A DNA stretch of 64,000 nt from Oculatellaceae cyanobacterium bins.114 (lineage in GTDB: Bacteria > Cyanobacteriota > Cyanobacteriia > Elainellales > Elainellaceae), in NCBI GenBank assembly GCA_033764315.1, contig JANRJA010000170.1, positions 1 through 64,000 of the forward strand, read 5' to 3'. The notes below the pieces were generated by a model that was not told the origin of the DNA, ran no database searches, and worked only from the letters and a program-made list of their open reading frames with translations. The translations under genes were made by a program, and so were the position numbers. Positions 1 to 12,530 of the stretch are shown piece after piece; positions within the stretch are counted from its first letter, which is position 1, and each line of letters opens with the position of its first letter.

Positions 1-24
1 GCGGTTCAAGTCCGCCTCCTGGCA
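1..24 (+). tRNA. 3' end of tRNA-Phe(GAA); the 5' part lies outside the window; attL of the integrated element
   Basis: GCGGTTCAAGTCCGCCTCCTGGCA is a T-arm plus acceptor 3' strand; the longer copy at 12373 carries the anticodon arm GAGGA-CTGAAAA-TCCTC. Confidence 0.85.
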
Positions 25-255
25 TTATTCCTCGACTGGGAAAACAGTGTTGCAGTTAACGCACTCAACAATGTACTCAGATTCATCTTCATCAACCACT
101 ACGCCAGCTTCCCATCCATGATTTTCAAGGCATAGTGGGCAGCTTCCATCTGGGTATTGCTCACATTTCTCCTGAGCTGTCATTACTTCACCATTGTTTT
201 TTATGAAATAAGTCATCTTGTTTACCTGCGTAGTAGAGCAATTAGTCAAGCTCAA
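25..255 (-). CDS. Small CxxC...CxxC zinc-ribbon protein (start uncertain)
   Basis: CPLC and CVNC motifs; stop codon abuts the att repeat. Confidence 0.5.
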   Translation of the reverse strand: MSLTNCSTTQVNKMTYFIKNNGEVMTAQEKCEQYPDGSCPLCLENHGWEAGVVVDEDESEYIVECVNCNTVFPVEE

Positions 256-350: not shown

Positions 351-1259
351 TTAGAATTCTGGGATGTTAATGATCCGGTTTCTTCCCACGTAGTGTTCGT
401 AAAGAACCTTTACAGAAACTCGTCCCAAATAGGACACATCTTGAGGGCTAAGGTGGTTCAACGCTTCAGTAAGCCAGGTATGACGGCAATGGTACTGACT
501 CAGGTAGAACGCGATTTTCCCTTCATCTACCAATCTCTCTACAAGTGGTTTCCAATGCCGTGTCTGAAAATTTTTGTAGTCAAATTCCCCTCCCTCGATG
601 CCAGTAAAAACAGGTGATTTACGATCGCACTGGAGATGATACAGGTCAGCTAAAAGGTCTTGAAGCCTTTGATTACAAGGAAAGCGAGTGCTTTTCCCGT
701 TTTTGGTGCCCTGCCGGATCTTCACATCGATGGGCAATGCTTCCTCAAACAGGATCTCTTTAAAGCCACCCGCGATATGTCCCCACCTCAGTGCGGCTGC
801 TTCCTCTGGACGGCAACCCGTCCAAAAAAGGAACTTCACCCAGTGGGAGTAGAAAAAATCATGCTTGTCAAACTCCTCAATGATGCGATCGCGTTCCTCA
901 ACCGTGAACGCTGCCCATGCTTTCTCGCCTGGTTGCTTGGCTCTTATCTGTCTAGCCAAACCGTCAAACGGGTTGAATTTGATGATGTTTGAAAACATTG
1001 CCCACCCTCCACACGCCTGGAGCTGGACCAAGGTACGGCGTGCTATCTCTGCTGAGTAGTGTTGCATGAGGTAGTCTCGAATCTCAACACTTGTCGCCAA
1101 CAGTGGGGCAATCGCGTTCATCTTCTCCAGCCGTCGAGTAATTTTTTGATAGTCCCGTTGGTAAGTAGATGGTGCAACCTGCCCGCGTCGAAACTCTGTG
1201 TACTGAGTCCACAGTTCACAGACCTGGATGGGATTAATTGAACGTCTCCTATCGTTCAT
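351..1259 (-). CDS. int: Tyrosine recombinase/integrase
   Basis: TGCRPEEAAALRW (catalytic R), TKNGK, YHCRHT, C-terminal HY tyrosine; next to the att site. Confidence 0.93.
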   Translation of the reverse strand: MNDRRRSINPIQVCELWTQYTEFRRGQVAPSTYQRDYQKITRRLEKMNAIAPLLATSVEIRDYLMQHYSAEIARRTLVQLQACGGWAMFSNIIKFNPFDGLARQIRAKQPGEKAWAAFTVEERDRIIEEFDKHDFFYSHWVKFLFWTGCRPEEAAALRWGHIAGGFKEILFEEALPIDVKIRQGTKNGKSTRFPCNQRLQDLLADLYHLQCDRKSPVFTGIEGGEFDYKNFQTRHWKPLVERLVDEGKIAFYLSQYHCRHTWLTEALNHLSPQDVSYLGRVSVKVLYEHYVGRNRIINIPEF

Positions 1260-1504: not shown

Positions 1505-1791
1505 CGCTTGCCCTCATGTGGGAACTCTGCGGTTCTAAGCTTTTCCTCTAAGACCGCGATCGCCTTGTCGCTTAGTAATTGCCTCAACATCCACCACTGA
1601 CGCGCCAGGGGGCGATCGCCAATCATCCTTCTTACCTGTGCTTCCTCTCTGCCTTTACGCACGAGAGCCACGATCGCCCATGCCACTAATCGGGGGGTGG
1701 GGTCACTGCCTTTCAACTGGCATCGGGTGATGTGAATTTGGATGCTGGTGAGGGTATCTAGGAGGTCTATCACTCCGTAGTCTCCTTCCAA
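1501..1791 (-). CDS. Hypothetical element protein
   Basis: Lies in the same operon, between the replicase and the integrase. Confidence 0.55.
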   Translation of the reverse strand: MEGDYGVIDLLDTLTSIQIHITRCQLKGSDPTPRLVAWAIVALVRKGREEAQVRRMIGDRPLARQWWMLRQLLSDKAIAVLEEKLRTAEFPHEGKR

Positions 1792-3221
1792 GGGGGATCG
1801 AAATGGCTCAAACCCTCTACAGGCAATGTGTTACACCCTGTTTCCTCAAAATTCCAGCCCTGAAACCACCTCGAACCCTTATCAGAGCTAGGGTTACACT
1901 CCCTTTCAGACAATAAGCTTTTAGCGAATTCTCGCTCACTCGCTCCTTCAGAGCTAGAGTGAGCAGATTCGATATTTCCAGAGGGGGGGTGCGGGGGGGT
2001 TTTCCACAGGTGCCGAGGGTGCCAAAGGTCGATGTGATATTCGTGGTAAAGCGTCTCACCACTGAACCCAAATTCCGTGGTTAAAACCGTGAATCTCTCC
2101 CTCGTTTCTGCGGGTAAGCGTCCCTGGTTCAGGAGCTGGGCGATCGCAAAGCAGATCCTTTCTCGTGCCCTTGCCTTGTGAAATTGGTTCCATTGGTTGA
2201 CGGCTGCCTCAACAGTCGTCGGCTCCGGTTCCTTCTTGCTCTCCCCATAGGGGTAATATCGGGAGTTCTCTACACACCGTACCCACTCCTCAGCCCGTTG
2301 GAAAATTTCATGCTTATGCCTACACCACTCGTGATAACCAGGTGCTCTGGTAGCCACTTTCACGATTTCCAGCACCAGGCGTTCACCCTCTAACGGCTTG
2401 CCTCCCACCAGGCGATGCCCAAACACATACGATCGTAGAGTGATGCGACCGAGTAGATAGTTTGTCTGCCCTGGACCTGTCCACCCTGTTTCTATTTCGG
2501 TGTTGAGGTCGTTAAGGAATTTTTCACCCTTGTAACCCAACTTGAAGTAAGTCCGGGTTGCTTCCTTGAGAACTCTGTTAAATAAGACCTGATTGATCTG
2601 GTTTCGTCGTTCGCACCAACCCCATTGACGACAAAACTCAATCTGAGTAGACCATTTTGGTGCCCACCAATCATCGAGAATGTAACTACCCGTTTGCAGT
2701 GGGAGGCGATGCCCTTTATAAAGTGAGGTGCCTCCCTCTGCGTCGTAGTTGCGAACGTTGGGGAAGATTTCTAGTAACCCATCCTCAACCATGAAGCCTT
2801 TATATTTGAGAATTTGGGCGACGACGGCGGCAATCTGCCAGGTGAGGAGAGGACGAGGTAACGGGAAATAGATATGGATTCCACCGCTGTAACTGCTGGT
2901 GATGGCGATGTGGTCGGTTATACCCAAAAGTTCTAAGGCTTCAATAATTCGTCCGGTTGCGAATCGGTCACGCTTGGGGTGATAGGGTGAGTTTCGATCA
3001 ATGTCAAGCATGAAATAGCTGGTTTCTATGCCAAACCTCACACCATATAGGTATTTACCCTCTTGTAGGTGTCGATCGCTGAGTGGGTGCCTGTCTTCGG
3101 TGTGCCACTCGGTTTTCTCACCTGGTTGGTGATGGGGTGCCCAAAGGTAATCCCATCTGTGGGGGAATAGCTCAAGAAATTGGTCTGTTTCGGGAATGTA
3201 ACGAGATAATGTGTTCGTCAT
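1770..3221 (-). CDS. Putative replication protein with an archaeo-eukaryotic primase (AEP/prim-pol)-like N-terminal domain
   Basis: hhhDhD motif (FMLDID), SxSGGxHhY motif (SSYSGGIHIYF), later HRLPLQ; no Walker A helicase domain seen. Confidence 0.7.
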   Translation of the reverse strand: MTNTLSRYIPETDQFLELFPHRWDYLWAPHHQPGEKTEWHTEDRHPLSDRHLQEGKYLYGVRFGIETSYFMLDIDRNSPYHPKRDRFATGRIIEALELLGITDHIAITSSYSGGIHIYFPLPRPLLTWQIAAVVAQILKYKGFMVEDGLLEIFPNVRNYDAEGGTSLYKGHRLPLQTGSYILDDWWAPKWSTQIEFCRQWGWCERRNQINQVLFNRVLKEATRTYFKLGYKGEKFLNDLNTEIETGWTGPGQTNYLLGRITLRSYVFGHRLVGGKPLEGERLVLEIVKVATRAPGYHEWCRHKHEIFQRAEEWVRCVENSRYYPYGESKKEPEPTTVEAAVNQWNQFHKARARERICFAIAQLLNQGRLPAETRERFTVLTTEFGFSGETLYHEYHIDLWHPRHLWKTPPHPPSGNIESAHSSSEGASEREFAKSLLSERECNPSSDKGSRWFQGWNFEETGCNTLPVEGLSHFDPPWKETTE

Positions 3222-4258: not shown

Positions 4259-4519
4259 ATGAGAGATGAAGCGAATCCTAATTCTGTGTTTGTTCAACTT
4301 AGACGGCAGTTAAAACTCACTCAAAAGAACGTTGCTGATGAATTGGGCATCAGCGAACAGACCGTTCGTAACTGGGAAAACGGAAAAACTACCCCACAGT
4401 TGACCATTCCCCAGATGAAACGCCTATGCAATTTGCTGCAACGTTCTTTAGAGGAAGTGCCTGACTATTTCGGACCTATTGAAAATGCCGATCACATAAA
4501 TGCGATCGGCATGAATTGA
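4259..4519 (+). CDS. Xre/Cro-family HTH transcriptional regulator
   Basis: LRRQLKLTQKNVADELGISEQTVRNWENG is a classic HTH_3 motif. Confidence 0.9.
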   Translation: MRDEANPNSVFVQLRRQLKLTQKNVADELGISEQTVRNWENGKTTPQLTIPQMKRLCNLLQRSLEEVPDYFGPIENADHINAIGMN

Positions 4520-4620
4520 GATAAGGAGGTGAACTAACTAAAACTTGCTTTGAATTCTGGAGGAGGGTGAATGCTTGGCGGCTCCCCTCCTCTTACCCCG
4601 TTTAAAGGAGCAATTTGATC

Positions 4621-4995
4621 ATGACACGAGCAAAGACAATCATTCCAATATTGCTTTGGGCATTTTCCCAAGGCGTTTTTTTGTCCGGTTGCATTGATGA
4701 AACGACAGCATCAACCAGTTCACCAAGAACAGCTCTGGTTGTAAACGGTGAACCCGTTACAGAATGGCGACAAATCACCAGGGATGAGCACGATAAACTC
4801 ATGCGCTTGGCAGGTGGATTAGATGAAATCGGTCGGTTTAAGAACCCCATCCTCTTAAGTGATGTGGGGCTATCTCCAAGCACAGCTAACGGCTGGCTGT
4901 TAATGCGGTTCAACTGGGACCCAACGAACGGCATTGCCGTGAACGTTGAGGATGGGTATCTAACCCAGTCCATTTTCTATATTCCCCGTCAGTAA
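4621..4995 (+). CDS. Putative lipoprotein
   Basis: Hydrophobic signal ending in an LSGC lipobox; AAGGAG RBS upstream. Confidence 0.6.
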   Translation: MTRAKTIIPILLWAFSQGVFLSGCIDETTASTSSPRTALVVNGEPVTEWRQITRDEHDKLMRLAGGLDEIGRFKNPILLSDVGLSPSTANGWLLMRFNWDPTNGIAVNVEDGYLTQSIFYIPRQ

Positions 4996-5838: not shown

Positions 5839-8010
5839 TTGATGGTTGAATCAAATCGTGGTGATTGTCCATTCGGAAGTGAACCCCGACCCAACGCCGA
5901 TCCAAATGCGGGTGTAATTGCCTTTGCCGATTTAGGAATACCGACCAGACCACGGGGAACTGGTCCAACAAGGATAGGACCGTTTCAATTTAACGATAAT
6001 GGCGCATTCCTTGATGTGGCAGACCTGACATCAGGTGCATACGACTTTAATATTGTTTATGTTGATGACCTCACTGGTTTTTGTAGCAAACCACCTCCCA
6101 CAGCTAACCAGATTTTAGATGTCAGTGGCTACCCTGATTCTGTACTAGCCCTCTTTAGAGAGAAAGCAGCGGCGATCGCGGCTCGACGGTGGAATCAAAA
6201 CTGTATCTGTGCCAGTGGCACCCCTGACCCGAACGCTTGCCGATATTGGGGAGGTAGGGGGCAATGCCCTGGCACTGCTTACGCATGGGAGGTAAATTAT
6301 TCAATCTCTCAATACAACACTATTGACGGCTCGTTCATCCAAACAAACTCAGCAGGGGGAACTTATGGATTGCCCCAAAATGGGAAGTTGTACTACGGAC
6401 CGATCGGGAGTCCACAATTTGTCGTCCAAGATGGCATCGCTAAATATATAGTGACCTATTACGATGACCCATTAGGGCAACAACCCAACACAGTAGATCT
6501 CACCCCATCCGCTAACATTGACCAAAATCAAGGTGTTTTTTACTATGTTTTCGATACCTTTGCCGCTTCCAACATGAGGGCAATCTTAGGGCAACGTGAT
6601 GATTGTTGCTCTACACCTCCAGCCCCACCCGATTACAACGATGACGTAGAAGATCCCAACAACATCATAGAAATTGATGGACCCGACTCACCCACAGGAG
6701 AACCCTTGACTATTATCGTGTTGCCCCTTCCCGGCATTGAAGGCGCACCAGGCGCACCAGGCGCACCAGGTGAACCAGGTGTTCCAGGGTCAAGAGGACC
6801 ACAAGGGGAACCAGGCATTCCTGGACCGCAAGGACCAGAGGGACCGAAGGGCGATCAGGGGAACCCTGGACCACCAGGTGAGCCTGGACCGTGCCCTAAT
6901 ATCACAGGAAGCCTTCAAATAGTGACGGAAGAACAGCCGTCACTAGAAGTAGAGAAGGTTGGACCATGCGATTATCTATTCAAATTTGCATTAAGAAATG
7001 AAGAAATGGAAGAAGTAATTATACAAGGTGTATTGAATATACAGAACTGTGATGGAAGTACTTTGTCAGTTCCATATGAAGGCAAAAACTTTGTAGGATT
7101 ACAGTCATTCTCACAGTCACTTTCAACAGCTTTGAAAGTGATGTCAGAGAATCAGTGTCCAGAAATAAAAGGTAAGACTGAACTACCAAATTGTTTTGAT
7201 TCAGAAGAAGATGCAAATGTCTTTATAGACACATTGGTAAGCTTCATAGTAGGTAAAATTGTAGACTTAGTAATTCTCTATTTTACAAAAGGAAAAGCAA
7301 CATTAAATCCTGTCTTAATGGAGTTTTTGAGTGCTCTAATTACAAATTTAATTATTGATATATTAGGCAGATTCATAGAAGCAACAACGGCACCACCACC
7401 ACTAGAATATGAAGGATATGGAATTTTAGGAATCAATAACAGAATCACCAATATAGAAACAATGCTGAAACAAATTGGTGAAGCTACATGTCCTGTAAAG
7501 CCACCTGAAGGAAGATATGAACAACCCAGTTGTATGGTGCTTCTACCATCAGAGCAATACAACGAATTCCAAATCATCAAACAGTTAATCATCACTTTCG
7601 GTTTGAATTACCCTCAAGATGTTGGTTCAAGATGGCATATTCACATTCCCGACCCAATAGACGGATTAAATTGGTGTACACACTTCGACAGCTTACAAAG
7701 AACTGTTGTGAATCGTGATTCTGAAACTCGTTATAGCGGGCGTATTTTTTGGGCAAATACATCGTTGTGGACGGGGGGTTACTTTGCCGGACGTGATGAA
7801 GCTAAAGAATTCTTAGAGCAAATTGCACAATTATCAAAGCTCACTCCCTCAGCTATCCGCATCTCCGAGAAAATACGTCCCGGTGGTCAATCGCTTGATG
7901 TATCGTCTCGTGATGTCAGAGCAGTGAGAGCCGTTGTTTCTCAACGTGCCGAAGATGAAGAAACAGCAGATTTAATACTATGTCTTGCCCCTCCTAAAGA
8001 GGGTTGTTAG
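5839..8010 (+). CDS. Large collagen-repeat protein, putative virion spike or attachment/entry protein
   Basis: 18 Gly-X-Y triplets (6733-6894), Cys-rich domains, two hydrophobic/amphipathic segments. Confidence 0.75.
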
Positions 8011-8215
8011 CGTTGTCATAGTCGGGATTCGTTGCCACGTACAACCGTCCCTTAAACTTTTTAGCCACAATCACACGCGACCTTAAAAGCGTCTTCACCT
8101 GGTTGCGAGTGTAAAAATTTTCCTTAAGCCATCTCGATAGTGGCACCAGTTGCAGCGATCCATCAGATCTACACCCCTCACAATAAAAATTGAATCGATC
8201 AGCAGGTGTAGGCAC
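7994..8215 (-). CDS. Small winged-helix (excisionase-like) DNA-binding protein
   Basis: [38 protein letters not shown] fits a Xis/HTH_17-like pattern. Confidence 0.5.
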
Positions 8216-9123: not shown

Positions 9124-9175
9124 TCGTTTGATTTTCAGTTCTAACCAATAAAACACGATTGAGAGGTACTTAGAT

Positions 9176-9892
9176 ATGCCAAATATGGCAGTGGGTTTGA
9201 TTCCTACCTATTCCGATGATTTAGGTAGAGCGGTCACAGATGTAAGGTTTAAGATTCGAGGTGACAAACTACAGGTTTCTGGGTTTGGGCTTGCTCCGGC
9301 TGGTGGGTGCACTGGCACAGGGAATTTATTCACGCTACGTCACGCAGTGGCACAATATGCTGACGGCAGCACGATACGATATCCCATTGATAACCCTGTA
9401 AATACCATCACAGTGGTTCAAGCAGCGGTTGCGGATGGTGCGGTCTGCGTTCACGTTGAGGGTGAACGTTGGTCTTTCATTCCTCCTAACATCGTAGGAG
9501 CACAGGGAGGGAATCAGCAGACTTATGTGGTTAACCCTGGATTCGCTGACAAAGAAACGGGTCTATTCACATACAACTCCAATATCGTTGGAGCTGGGGT
9601 AAATGCTCGGTACGCGATCGAACTTTCACCCACTAACATCTCTGATGCGATTCGTGGCTGTCTCACTGCTCCGGTGGTCGGGACGGCTCCATGCTCTCTA
9701 GCAGGCGGAACCACACCCCGTTACTTGACTGTGTTAGCCAATAAGTTGGGGGGTGGACAAGTCGCACGACAGGCAAAGGTCAGTGATTGGGGTCTTCCTG
9801 TACGTACCTGTGCGGCTGCTCTCTATGCCGTTGGGTTCTGCGTCAAATATCAGGGTGAAAGTTATCGTAATGCTCACTTAGTATTGCCATAA
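9176..9892 (+). CDS. Unknown protein with an internal duplication; candidate structural protein
   Basis: GAGAGGT RBS; halves end CVHVEGE and CVKYQGE. Confidence 0.65.
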   Translation: MPNMAVGLIPTYSDDLGRAVTDVRFKIRGDKLQVSGFGLAPAGGCTGTGNLFTLRHAVAQYADGSTIRYPIDNPVNTITVVQAAVADGAVCVHVEGERWSFIPPNIVGAQGGNQQTYVVNPGFADKETGLFTYNSNIVGAGVNARYAIELSPTNISDAIRGCLTAPVVGTAPCSLAGGTTPRYLTVLANKLGGGQVARQAKVSDWGLPVRTCAAALYAVGFCVKYQGESYRNAHLVLP

Positions 9893-9893
9893 G

Positions 9894-10262
9894 ATGCTTG
9901 AACAGCAATTGAGACAACTTAGCAAATTTAGATTTGCTATCACCTACCCTAAATTGCCTGGATTTATTCTCAGGCTCAATTTTGAGCCTATTATCCTTAG
10001 TCACAATATAGAGGGCAATTATGCTCTTTTACATTGGCAAGCGATGCCAAAGGGAGAAAGAAGATGGGGATGTTTTTGCATGAAAGATGGTGAAACATCC
10101 TATCAATCTTTCATTGAATTAAATCCAGTTTCAGGGGTCACTTTAAGAGGTATTCAAATCGATGAAACCTTCTTTACTTTTGTGCCTACTGCCGTCATCC
10201 ATTGTCCAAACTGCTTTCTATCTGTTGATGGGGATTTCGGGATTCTTAAATTGATTGAATGA
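9894..10262 (+). CDS. Hypothetical element protein
   Basis: Tightly packed in the operon; HWQAMPKGERRWG motif of unknown meaning. Confidence 0.6.
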   Translation: MLEQQLRQLSKFRFAITYPKLPGFILRLNFEPIILSHNIEGNYALLHWQAMPKGERRWGCFCMKDGETSYQSFIELNPVSGVTLRGIQIDETFFTFVPTAVIHCPNCFLSVDGDFGILKLIE

Positions 10263-10978
10263 CGTGGAATCTTGCATACGATGGTGAGATAGATGTTTTG
10301 GCACTGCAATGTCAACCCTTTTTTATTGACACTGTTGTAGGTCAAAGATTGGTGATTTGTGCTGATAATCCTTTTGCTCAACCAAATTGGAATGTTGCAT
10401 TTTATCTAACAGTAATCACAACAATTTCAGACTTTCAAGGAACTGTGATTCCAGTTGAAGCACTCAAGCAAACGATTAGTTTAGGAGAAAACGCATATGT
10501 AGAAATACCTCAGTTTGTAACAGTTTATAAGCTGAAATTAGAGTTCCCTAAGTGGCATAAAGGCATGAAGCTTCAAATATGGGCACAAGAGCTACAGATA
10601 TCAGGTGAATTCTTCTCAGCCGAAACACAATCAGCGGTCGTCTCAGGACAACCCTTAATTCTTCAAATAACTGGAAAATTGGCTCTTGCAAGAAATGATG
10701 ATTTCGCTCTTTCCTTTGCAACCTGCTTCGGTGCCAGTGATGCCAATCCAACCGAACCCGCAAGCTATATCACCGAAGGGCAAATTTTTAGAGGTGATTG
10801 GAGTCCTGTAGTAGGGGTGCCTTCACTCATCCCAGGGGCAACTTACTATCTTGCTTCGACACCAGGCACCATGAGTGCGATCGCACCAACCGACCCCGGT
10901 TATGTGGTGGTGGCACTCGGAAAAGCCTTGACCACAAACCTGTTCGATATCGAAATTCAATCCCCAATTCTCTTATAA
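10259..10978 (+). CDS. Two-domain virion accessory protein (C-terminal decoration/fibre-like domain)
   Basis: C-terminus is paralogous to the next gene (PGATYYLAS..PG...AP...VVALGKAL). Confidence 0.6.
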   Translation: MTWNLAYDGEIDVLALQCQPFFIDTVVGQRLVICADNPFAQPNWNVAFYLTVITTISDFQGTVIPVEALKQTISLGENAYVEIPQFVTVYKLKLEFPKWHKGMKLQIWAQELQISGEFFSAETQSAVVSGQPLILQITGKLALARNDDFALSFATCFGASDANPTEPASYITEGQIFRGDWSPVVGVPSLIPGATYYLASTPGTMSAIAPTDPGYVVVALGKALTTNLFDIEIQSPILL

Positions 10979-10980
10979 CT

Positions 10981-11463
10981 ATGGCTCTCATTAAACCTCT
11001 GGTCATCATTAATGGACTTGTTCAACAACTCTCAGCGGCTGACACCCTTGATGCTGCTGTATCAGAGGTAGATGTAGTTTCCCTTACCAACAACCAGGGA
11101 ACCGCAGTGGTGATTGGTACTCCCGTCTATTCCAATGCCACTGGACAATACCGGAGCGCACAGGCTAACGCAAGCGGAACTGTTCAGGTTATTGGATTGG
11201 CAAAGGATGTATCAGTTGCTAACGCTGCATCAGGACTTGTTCAAACCGATGGTGTGATGGTCGCAACTACAACTCAGTGGGATGCTATAACCGGACAAAC
11301 AGGGGGGTTAACCGCTGGCTCTCCCTACTTCCTCTCAGCTTCGACCGCTGGCAGGCTAACTGTAACGGCTCCCTCTACCGTTGGTCAATTCGTCGTTCGC
11401 GTAGGAATTGCTCTGAGTGCCACTCAAATGGATATTACTGTTCAACCTCCTATAGGGCTTTAA
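10981..11463 (+). CDS. Virion decoration/fibre-associated protein (DUF2190-like)
   Basis: ATG at 10981; G-x-PVY...VIGLA...GLTAGSPYFLS...VVRVGIA pattern seen in phage accessory proteins. Confidence 0.6.
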   Translation: MALIKPLVIINGLVQQLSAADTLDAAVSEVDVVSLTNNQGTAVVIGTPVYSNATGQYRSAQANASGTVQVIGLAKDVSVANAASGLVQTDGVMVATTTQWDAITGQTGGLTAGSPYFLSASTAGRLTVTAPSTVGQFVVRVGIALSATQMDITVQPPIGL

Positions 11464-12131
11464 TGACTCGTTTCTTGGCTATAGTAAGCGGTCGTCCAAC
11501 GATGACAGACCTGGCAGTGCGATCGGCAGGTTTCATCATGCCGCGCATTCGTGCCACTCCCCTCGCTGCCTTTATCCTTGAGTACGATGGTTATTGGGTG
11601 CAATTGAGCGGTGATAGCACTCCTAGAACGATCGGCAATGCCTCATCAGGAGCGGCAACGGCTCAAAGCTGGACGAGCATTCTATACACACTCATTTGGA
11701 ATAATTACACACAAACTCAGTGTCCAGTCCTCACATCTGGGGGGGGTGCTTCGACGAGAGGGGCAAGTGCTAGTGCAGACTATTCAGCTAATAAACGGCT
11801 CACATTGCCTGATTTTAGGGGGCGATCGCTCATTGGAACCGGGACCGCTCCCAGTGGGACTACCAGAGTTGCAGGGGATACGATCGGTTTAGAGAGTGTA
11901 ACACTCACCACAGATCAGCTTCCATCGCACCGTCACAGACTAAATGCTTTGGGTACAGCAGGGGGTTCATTTAGAAATGTGAACGTTGCGACGGCAGGAA
12001 CCCTTGATCAATACGTTGATTCATCCGGTGGAGCCGCCTATGTTGAAAATACGGGTTCAGGACTTCCATTCAACATCATTCAACCTTGTCACGTTGTTGA
12101 CTACTGGATATCGGCAGGAGCACGAGCATGA
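11463..12131 (+). CDS. Phage tail-collar/fibre-family protein
   Basis: LTLPDFRGRSLIGTG, GLESVTLTTDQLPSHRH and ENTGSGLPFNIIQP motifs; TAATG coupling to the upstream gene. Confidence 0.75.
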   Translation: MTRFLAIVSGRPTMTDLAVRSAGFIMPRIRATPLAAFILEYDGYWVQLSGDSTPRTIGNASSGAATAQSWTSILYTLIWNNYTQTQCPVLTSGGGASTRGASASADYSANKRLTLPDFRGRSLIGTGTAPSGTTRVAGDTIGLESVTLTTDQLPSHRHRLNALGTAGGSFRNVNVATAGTLDQYVDSSGGAAYVENTGSGLPFNIIQPCHVVDYWISAGARA

Positions 12132-12373
12132 CCAGTGACAGTCTAGAAATATTAGCAACCGTTTTGGGTATCACTTCGCTGATTGCGGGGGGGATTGCCT
12201 GGTATCGTGGATCGGTTCAAAAAGCCTATGCCGCAGAACGTGAGATGGGGCATATCAAGCAAAACCTTCAACAATTAGGGCAGGGTTTAGGCTCAATCGA
12301 CAAGGAACTTGAGGAACTTAATCGGGTGATTGTCGAGATTAAAGCGTTAATATTGGCACAGACGAGGCATTAA
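12128..12373 (+). CDS. Holin-like small membrane protein
   Basis: One N-terminal TM helix plus a coiled coil; last gene of the operon; ATGA overlap. Confidence 0.5.
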   Translation: MTSDSLEILATVLGITSLIAGGIAWYRGSVQKAYAAEREMGHIKQNLQQLGQGLGSIDKELEELNRVIVEIKALILAQTRH

Positions 12374-12422
12374 GAGGACTGAAAATCCTCGTGTCGGCGG
12401 TTCAAGTCCGCCTCCTGGCATT
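12373..12422 (+). repeat. attR: duplicated 3' part of tRNA-Phe (anticodon arm to 3' end)
   Basis: AGAGGACTGAAAATCCTCGTGTCGGCGGTTCAAGTCCGCCTCCTGGCATT; lacks the acceptor 5' strand and D-arm. Confidence 0.92.
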
Positions 12423-12530
12423 TTTAATTGCTATTGTGTCGTGTAAATTTTAGGAAACCGCAGGTTTACCCTTGCTTCTCAGCAATGAGATGTCAAGATC
12501 AAGATAAGATGCAGCCTGTTTCGAGATCTT

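Follow-up and report, generated by a model that had tools for sequence, protein, structure and literature searches.

We describe here p238, a gene of a small mobile element in a cyanobacterial contig, JANRJA010000170.1 of Oculatellaceae cyanobacterium bins.114 (GCA_033764315.1). The window, by which we mean the whole stretch of DNA that was analysed, comprises 64,000 nt (positions 1-64,000 of the contig, forward strand), and the element occupies about 12.4 kb of it, between 29-nt direct repeats of a tRNA-Phe 3' end that share 97% identity (1-29 versus 12397-12425). Our main finding is that the p238 protein consists of two homologous alpha/beta domains of ~110 amino acids (aa), which arose by one ancient tandem duplication, older than the family as a whole. 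The features of the gene and its product, with the structural elements as predicted, are the following.

9176..9892, plus strand: p238 gene, encoding a two-domain protein of 238 aa; ATG at 9176, stop at 9890-9892
9161-9166, plus strand: Shine-Dalgarno-like GAGAGG, nine bases 5' of the p238 ATG
9176..9490, plus strand: N-domain, aa 1-105, carrying Y12, C45, R55, C91, G96 and E97
N-domain elements: strands 4-13 and 19-28; helix 29-35; strands 55-60 and 66-71; helix 74-86; strand 91-95
9542..9889, plus strand: C-domain, aa 123-238, carrying Y133, C173, R182, C222, G227 and E228, and an extra pair, C162/C212
C-domain elements: strands 126-135 and 139-149; helix 153-160; strands 183-190 and 195-201; helix 207-217; strand 222-226

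Judged from its sequence, p238 is a real and expressed-looking gene. An earlier reading of the bare DNA (hereafter the original prediction) had taken it for a capsid protein candidate with a strong ribosome-binding site, and the GAGAGG motif, with a duplex energy of -7.1 kcal/mol against a generic anti-Shine-Dalgarno sequence, is indeed the second strongest among the 14 element genes compared. The start codon is the conserved one, since the alignment of relatives begins at the same Met. All the motifs that had been named as marking two like halves are present: TYSDDLG at aa 11 and TYNSNIVG at aa 132, the central-Cys motifs GCTGTGNLFTLRH at aa 44 and PCSLAGGTTPRY at aa 172, and the half-end motifs CVHVEGE at aa 91 and CVKYQGE at aa 222.

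An exhaustive profile search gathered 129 representatives of the family at E<=1e-3, 102 of them at E<=1e-10. One, P0091, is an insect JmjC protein matching in 15 short stretches and was set aside as a false positive, so that this widespread family counts 128 credible representatives when clustered at 50% identity. With few exceptions they have a length of 234-290 aa and match end to end, the overall identity within the family is ~25%, and the named members are all cyanobacterial (Leptolyngbya, Tumidithrix, Pseudanabaena, one metagenome-assembled genome each of Synechococcaceae and of Scytonema, and plasmids of Microcystis and Geminocystis). Our alignment of 113 sequences is made up of P0001 (p238), P0003, P0005, P0006 and 109 of the 129 representatives; the other 20 (P0010, 43, 82, 91, 92, 101, 102, 107, 109, 111, 112, 115, 119-121 and 130-134) were excluded by eye ahead of any test, as short, partial, multi-stretch or among the weakest. 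In this alignment C45, R55, G96, E97, R182 and G227 are invariant, and Y12, C91, Y133, C173, C222 and Y225 are kept in 107-112 of the 113 sequences; the residues chosen in the original prediction are the most conserved columns of the family.

Searches of the common libraries gave no relative outside the family. p238 has no match in Pfam, PHROGs, NCBIfam or PADLOC, its sole row (CBM_5_12, E 0.2) being noise, and none of the 113 members matches any Pfam family at E<=0.01, the tandem BMC domain (PF00936) included. A sequence-profile search of the PDB with the family found nothing, and the ESM Atlas holds no usable feature match for p238, with a poor model of its own (predicted local distance difference test, pLDDT, 0.34). 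A pattern search from a five-sequence alignment returned 52 pattern matches and no relative among them, while an alignment of 15 sequences led to four related loci. Apart from Stark et al. (2025, ISME Commun, PMC12510456), the literature searched contains no account of this protein family.

The duplication is a property of the family, more than of any one sequence. The halves of p238 alone yield a BLASTP E of 0.10 over 26 columns, which is not significant, and a Smith-Waterman score of 31 against a shuffled mean of ~28.3 (standard deviation ~5), which 254-292 of 1000 shuffles reach; half-profiles from five sequences align over 8-15 columns, in the CVxxxGE stretch only (P 0.05-0.1). These non-significant tests are what one would expect if the likeness of the halves were due to chance or low complexity, in a protein that was never duplicated, but we regard that as having next to no probability given the full alignment. 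Profiles of the N-half and C-half built from 113 sequences match with a probability of 97.7-97.8% and an E of 0.9-1.4e-12 over 94-95 columns (102-104 in global mode), and the match holds at each of three cut points. The real score of 67.7 compares with a mean of 9.3 (standard deviation 1.6, maximum 15.9) for 60 column-shuffled C-halves, none of which reaches even a quarter of it, and with 10.7-10.8 for reversed halves. The register pairs Y12 with Y133, C45 with C173, R55 with R182, C91 with C222, and G96E97 with G227E228, in agreement with the pairing of motifs in the original prediction. Quarter-profiles match collinearly only (N1 with C1 at 83%, N2 with C2 at 96.9%, the four cross pairs at <=1.9%), which argues for one duplication of a ~110-aa unit. 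The internal tandem duplication suggested in the original prediction is thus upheld. A finer (beta-beta-alpha)x2 repeat within each half was sought with the same quarter-profiles and not found.

The original prediction also called for a search for single-domain relatives of ~110 aa, and this brought up no established family. Most of the short matches are truncated copies of full-length cluster mates (137 versus 271, 154 versus 246 and 163 versus 262 aa). Only two metagenomic clusters, P0115 and P0134, of 123-124 aa, resemble free-standing C-domains, with a start Met of their own and the usual C-terminal end; both members of the 123-aa cluster have that length, one of them on a 25-kb contig, and the other cluster is of 124 aa. 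These lone C-domains could be split forms or pre-fusion forms.

With the 113 sequences, AlphaFold produced a model of p238 with a pLDDT of 95.8 and a predicted template modelling score (pTM) of 0.91; with five sequences the pLDDT was 39 and the model useless. The good model is of mixed alpha/beta type, with two helices and about six strands per half, and within each half the succession of elements includes a beta-alpha-beta-beta-alpha-beta core with extra strands on its flanks. Tandem ferredoxin-like proteins (YkoF/ACT-like, ABM-like) consist of two such units, and p238 may or may not be related to them: YkoF and an anthrone-oxidase-like protein head its PDB rows in Foldseek, but at E 0.15-0.25 and a TM of 0.15-0.21 (template modelling score). 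All seven secondary-structure elements come in the same order in the two halves and in register with the profile alignment, a further point that speaks against chance likeness. Foldseek returned nothing significant for this model: the best PDB row is at E 0.15 (YkoF, TM 0.18-0.21), the best row in BFVD at E 0.039 with a TM of 0.16, and the top query-normalised TM in the PDB and BFVD lists is 0.23. We therefore have a confidently predicted fold without a known neighbour, one that by the model is neither a jelly roll nor HK97-like.

The conserved cysteines offer a second line of evidence on how the protein may be built. C45 occurs in every one of the 113 sequences and C91 in 112 of them; three sequences, the same for both residues, lack C173 and C222, and C45 and C91 are retained there. 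Of C162 and C212, 85 sequences have both and 28 have neither, and no sequence has just one. Because cysteines are gained and lost in pairs across the family, we infer that 45-91 and 173-222, at equivalent places of the two domains, and, in three quarters of the members, 162-212 are disulfides, a covariation that is supportive and not conclusive, as related sequences are not independent events. The structural role that the original prediction thought possible for the conserved Cys thus looks likely, the pairwise covariation being as one sees for disulfides. A Cys4 metal site common to both domains was considered and set aside in view of the joint loss of C173 and C222 in the three sequences that keep C45 and C91. 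By eye, the N-terminus of p238 has no signal-peptide-like hydrophobic stretch, and disulfides would accordingly form after the protein has left the cell.

The same invariant residues admit another reading, in which p238 is a non-structural enzyme or ligand-binding protein with a pseudo-twofold site made of invariant Cys, Arg, Glu and Tyr from both halves. We judge this improbable, though it has some appeal: polar residues are strictly invariant at ~25% overall identity, and the top PDB rows of Foldseek, YkoF (E 0.15) and an anthrone-oxidase-like protein (E 0.25), are small-molecule-binding tandem alpha+beta proteins. Those rows are non-significant, however, with TM values of 0.15-0.21; the pairwise gain and loss of Cys suits disulfides better than a common catalytic or metal site; neither p238 nor any of the 113 members matches an entry of Pfam, NCBIfam or PADLOC; and the gene always lies within a late, structural-looking operon, beside a gene that we call p258. 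The remaining features of the element, p258 among them, are listed below.

1..29, plus strand: attL, tRNA-Phe 3' end; direct repeat of 12397-12425, the tRNA body lying left of the window
351..1259, minus strand: tyrosine recombinase/integrase (Phage_integrase E 9.7e-5, below the curated cut-off; TIGR02224 XerC E 1.8e-4)
1770..3221, minus strand: putative replication protein of 483 aa, no family match
4259..4519, plus strand: HTH_3 (XRE-type) regulator (Pfam HTH_3 E 1.4e-12), with a homologue in locus L002
5839..8010, plus strand: collagen-repeat protein of 723 aa with 18 Cys (Pfam Collagen E 1.8e-9), a hydrophobic stretch and a conserved C-terminal domain
7994..8215, minus strand: p73, a basic protein of 73 aa (isoelectric point, pI, 9.8), adjoining the module, with homologues in L002 and L003
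8347..9123, plus strand: p258, the acidic partner of 258 aa, directly 5' of the p238 gene; 16 homologues
9894..10262, plus strand: p122, a protein of 122 aa with homologues in L001, L003, L004, L005 and L006, no family match
10259..11463, plus strand: fibre-like or decoration-like proteins of 239 aa and 160 aa (the latter from 10981), with a common C-terminal domain of ~60 aa
11463..12131, plus strand: tail-fibre-like or receptor-binding-like protein of 222 aa (phrog_8763 'tail protein' E 3.3e-19; Gp10_C E 1.1e-4, below the cut-off)
12128..12373, plus strand: protein of 81 aa with one hydrophobic segment and a coiled coil, the last gene of the element, family matches at noise level
12374..12425, plus strand: attR, tRNA-Phe 3' part (anticodon stem to 3' end), not a whole tRNA

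As only the 3' part of tRNA-Phe stands at the right end, the window opens inside the intact tRNA (attL), and 12374-12425 is attR; the length of the repeat that can be seen is limited, the window starting at the repeat itself. A tRNA-Phe called by ARAGORN at 12346-12420 was rejected as a whole tRNA: the 5' half of the call is unable to form its stems, and Rfam detects no tRNA in this place. To the right of the element lie host genes for nitroreductase, guanylate kinase, RemA and NFACT. The 483-aa protein found no match in Pfam, NCBIfam, PADLOC or the PDB, where a single-sequence search gave noise only; it contains DIDR and GGIHIY motifs, which may resemble those of archaeo-eukaryotic primase-polymerases. 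For p122, Pfam, PHROGs and NCBIfam were silent, and single-sequence PDB searches gave nothing above noise for either p122 or the 222-aa protein. None of the 18 element proteins matches a PADLOC anti-phage defence model.

Collagen-like and tail-fibre-like genes surround p238 in the element. PHROG tail-fibre families match solely the repeat of the 723-aa protein, and its C-terminal 260 aa match a 452-aa coiled-coil protein of L003, a Tumidithrix element (E 1e-13). Its long hydrophobic stretch comes after the repeat, and its listed TTG start is doubtful, an ATG following immediately. The C-terminal domains of the 239-aa (10259-10978) and 160-aa (10981-11463) proteins match each other at a BLASTP E of 4e-8, and the 160-aa protein bears a weak likeness to Phage_cement_2 (Pfam E 0.017; phrog_12121 E 6e-6). 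A 126-aa protein (4615-4995, plus strand), with no family match, has a lipoprotein-type signal, a hydrophobic N-terminus ending in LSGC, and the strongest ribosome-binding site of the element (-8.0 kcal/mol).

Seven loci could be read for context, namely the window and six related loci, L001 to L006, all of them cyanobacterial. In all seven, the p238 homologue is immediately preceded by a homologue of p258, although that of Geminocystis is a 107-aa piece only (E 1e-7). The p258 family is acidic (pI 4.2-5.0), and p258 has no match in Pfam, PHROGs or NCBIfam and none by profile search of the PDB; its Atlas model has no neighbour with a TM >0.32 except one unnamed 258-aa cluster. The adjacency of two mutually unrelated proteins, on which the original prediction had built, is borne out (hhalign probability 0.2% between p258 and p238), but a self-duplication of p258, which it had likewise proposed, could not be confirmed, just 24 columns aligning at a probability of 15-19%. 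Nor do the results bear out the two-protein shell drawn from the pair: the predicted fold of p238 is not that of a jelly roll or HK97 protein, and in Foldseek it matches no capsid protein. The Tumidithrix homologue of p258, P0150, bears the UniRef label 'Virion structural protein' (hypothetical at NCBI), the source of which is untraceable in Pfam, PHROGs and NCBIfam and which we note as a lead only.

The setting of the pair is that of mobile DNA. Homologues of p238 lie in mobile elements at five of the seven loci, the contigs of the other two being too short to judge, in line with the original prediction, against which a setting mainly outside such elements would have counted. L002 and L003 are chromosomal islands with primase-helicases of the DUF3854-VapE or D5 type, L005 is a circular Microcystis plasmid of 17,272 bp with an integrase and VapE, and L006 is a Geminocystis plasmid of 32 kb in which a GH19 endolysin closes the module. 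A p122 homologue stands downstream of the p238 homologue in six of the seven loci, none being detected in L002. Around the constant p258-p238 core the replication genes are swapped, with the 483-aa protein here and DUF3854-VapE or D5 in L002, L003 and L005. That replication genes vary while the set of p258, p238 and p122 stays is the pattern of a virion module. Family-library scans recognised no HK97 or double-jelly-roll capsid protein, portal or terminase in the window element and the six related loci, which makes the conserved trio the best candidate for the core of a particle.

We suggest, as a possibility that we favour tentatively, that p238 is a virion subunit, most likely shell-associated, working together with p258 in small temperate cyanobacterial virus-like elements. 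According to this proposal, p238 would be a structural subunit of the particle made by temperate elements of ~12-17 kb, jointly with the acidic p258. As a covalent pseudo-dimer it would present two equivalent faces, and its oligomers would appear twice as symmetric, a feature known from other virion proteins with an internal duplication. The disulfide-like Cys pair of each domain may lock it, formed once the particle exits the reducing cytoplasm, and the protein would be placed in the shell, or in a shell-associated layer, built with p258, while the variable downstream genes would supply the adsorption apparatus. The gene, its duplication, the confident two-domain model, the covariation of the cysteines, the constant pairing with p258 and the mobile setting are established by the analysis, and from these we infer the presence of p238 in a particle, its oligomeric state, its disulfides and its part in the shell; a role in the capsid shell proper is plausible.

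A number of observations weigh against this proposal. The members of the family are known from genes alone, with no particle, mass-spectrometry or microscopy evidence for any of them, and two queries of 50,697 isolated-phage records found no homologue of p238. Without a packaging ATPase, portal or terminase, the packaging of 12-17 kb of DNA has no explanation; in library scans of the window element, L002, L003, L005 and L006, no FtsK/HerA-type or other ATPase family was recognised. The invariant Cys, Arg and Glu at symmetric positions could, as discussed above, also mark a catalytic or ligand site. Finally, the module is not uniform: in the other loci six small genes (~47-210 aa) separate the homologues of p238 and p122, and in place of that run, which it lacks, the window element has three fibre-like genes after p122.

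This unevenness bears directly on the view that p238 belongs to the adsorption or ejection apparatus, as a tail hub, an adaptor or a tube-like ring, and not to the shell, its trimer forming a pseudo-sixfold ring. A precedent for such a ring exists in the T4 gp27 family and T5 pb6, where tandem tube-like domains turn a trimer into a pseudo-hexamer by internal duplication. In p238, however, the order of helices and strands differs, and library scans recognised no sheath, tube or tape-measure family nearby. The domains of the tail-tube and hub superfamily (tube, Hcp, gp27) are tube-like beta-sandwiches with one helix, and the only tail-tube rows that Foldseek gave (9jgi, 8xkn and 9jgh) are noise, at E 0.3-0.7 and a TM of 0.09-0.11. 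Hub, tube and Dit structures, of which the PDB has many, yielded no match. The window element, moreover, keeps p258, p238 and p122 without the small-gene run, which indicates that p238 is independent of those genes. We consider a tail or adaptor role unlikely.

The gene content of the elements raises a different prospect, namely that they are phage satellites without a capsid of their own, in which p258 and p238 would act on the particle of a helper phage as external scaffold, size-redirecting factor or decoration. A length of 12-17 kb, an integrase with a primase-helicase or other replication gene, integration at a tRNA, and the lack of a recognisable capsid, portal or terminase are what P4-like and PICI-like satellites would show. 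According to Table S10 of PMC12510456, moreover, the Microcystis plasmid has one small gene with ~90% DNA identity to Ma-LMM01, a myophage that infects the same strain. On the other hand, no homology to satellite proteins was seen, and eight to twelve structural-looking genes, with fibre-like proteins of their own and an endolysin in L006, exceed what one would look for in a satellite. A helper phage is not known, and p258, like p238, has no relative among the isolated-phage records. Weighing these points, we hold a satellite nature to be rather improbable; if the elements are satellites, the p258-p238 pair would represent a new way of exploiting helper phages.

Returning to the proposal of a shell-associated virion subunit, p238 may be set beside the known capsid architectures. 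The double jelly-roll capsid proteins (PRD1 P3, PM2 P2), of ~240-400 aa, consist of two homologous domains and confer a doubled apparent symmetry on their oligomers, and their viruses are small, sometimes integrated and tailless. Those proteins are two consecutive eight-stranded, all-beta jelly rolls, whereas p238 is predicted to have two helices per domain and has no Foldseek match to such capsids. Their genes are linked to an FtsK/HerA-type packaging ATPase and a single-jelly-roll penton gene, and the window element contains no such ATPase that the scans could recognise. In Thermus phage P23-77 and the haloarchaeal SH1 group, two adjacent, unrelated-looking structural genes (~170-290 aa) occur in small genomes that are also found integrated. 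The likeness here is that of two adjacent genes, p258 and p238, in all seven loci, and adjacency alone does not define a family; the proteins of P23-77 and SH1 are single vertical beta-barrels accompanied by a packaging ATPase, in contrast to a predicted two-domain alpha/beta protein and an ATPase that was not found. For HK97 capsids (A and P domains, spine helix, E-loop), neither p238 nor p258 matches a Pfam or PHROG family, and Foldseek finds no likeness for p238. To our knowledge, the icosahedral DNA viruses of bacteria that have been studied well all build their capsids from a handful of folds. A bolder form of the proposal is that p258, p238 and perhaps p122 are the shell of an unrecognised structural lineage of bacterial DNA viruses, small, temperate and cyanobacterial, without HK97 or jelly-roll capsids, a portal-terminase system or an FtsK-type motor, and with the duplicated, disulfide-locked p238 forming pseudo-symmetric capsomers; we think this unlikely, but it states what would be at stake. 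Among the genes of these small elements, which integrate or resemble plasmids and carry fibres, and in one case a lysin, with no recognisable capsid, portal or terminase, p238 is conserved best. If it is true that p258 and p238 build the particle, its capsid architecture would be new, and it would occur in cyanobacteria that form blooms, Microcystis among them.

The family has one member with a published label. Gene 4731 of plasmid P1 of Microcystis aeruginosa NIES-298 (WP_103113465.1, NZ_CP046059.1) is a true homologue of p238 (tblastn E 2e-14, 27% identity over 97% of p238; phmmer E 1.4e-20), and its neighbours are those of p238: the gene before it resembles p258, the gene after it resembles p122, and the small element that holds them has an integrase. 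Stark et al. (2025) call this plasmid 'phage-like'; its geNomad virus score is 0.69, and an 'uncultured phage' contig matches it with 71% coverage and 87% identity. Other authors cited there counted that contig, by its transcription in a bloom, among the top viral fragments of Microcystis. Gene 4731 is labelled 'putative minor capsid protein' by way of a non-significant structural match (PMC12510456). Whether the elements are viruses or satellites, the duplication, the cysteine pairs and the constant gene pair provide concrete experimental handles, and they replace the 'minor capsid protein' label given in that paper. By Table S10 of the same source, the mapped p238 homologue of L005 (12854-13621) is 67% identical in DNA to the 'uncultured phage' contig, and the other L005 genes in the rows examined are mostly 72-96% identical, with gene 4757 at 69%; as far as those rows go, this hints that the p238 homologue of the Microcystis plasmid evolves faster.

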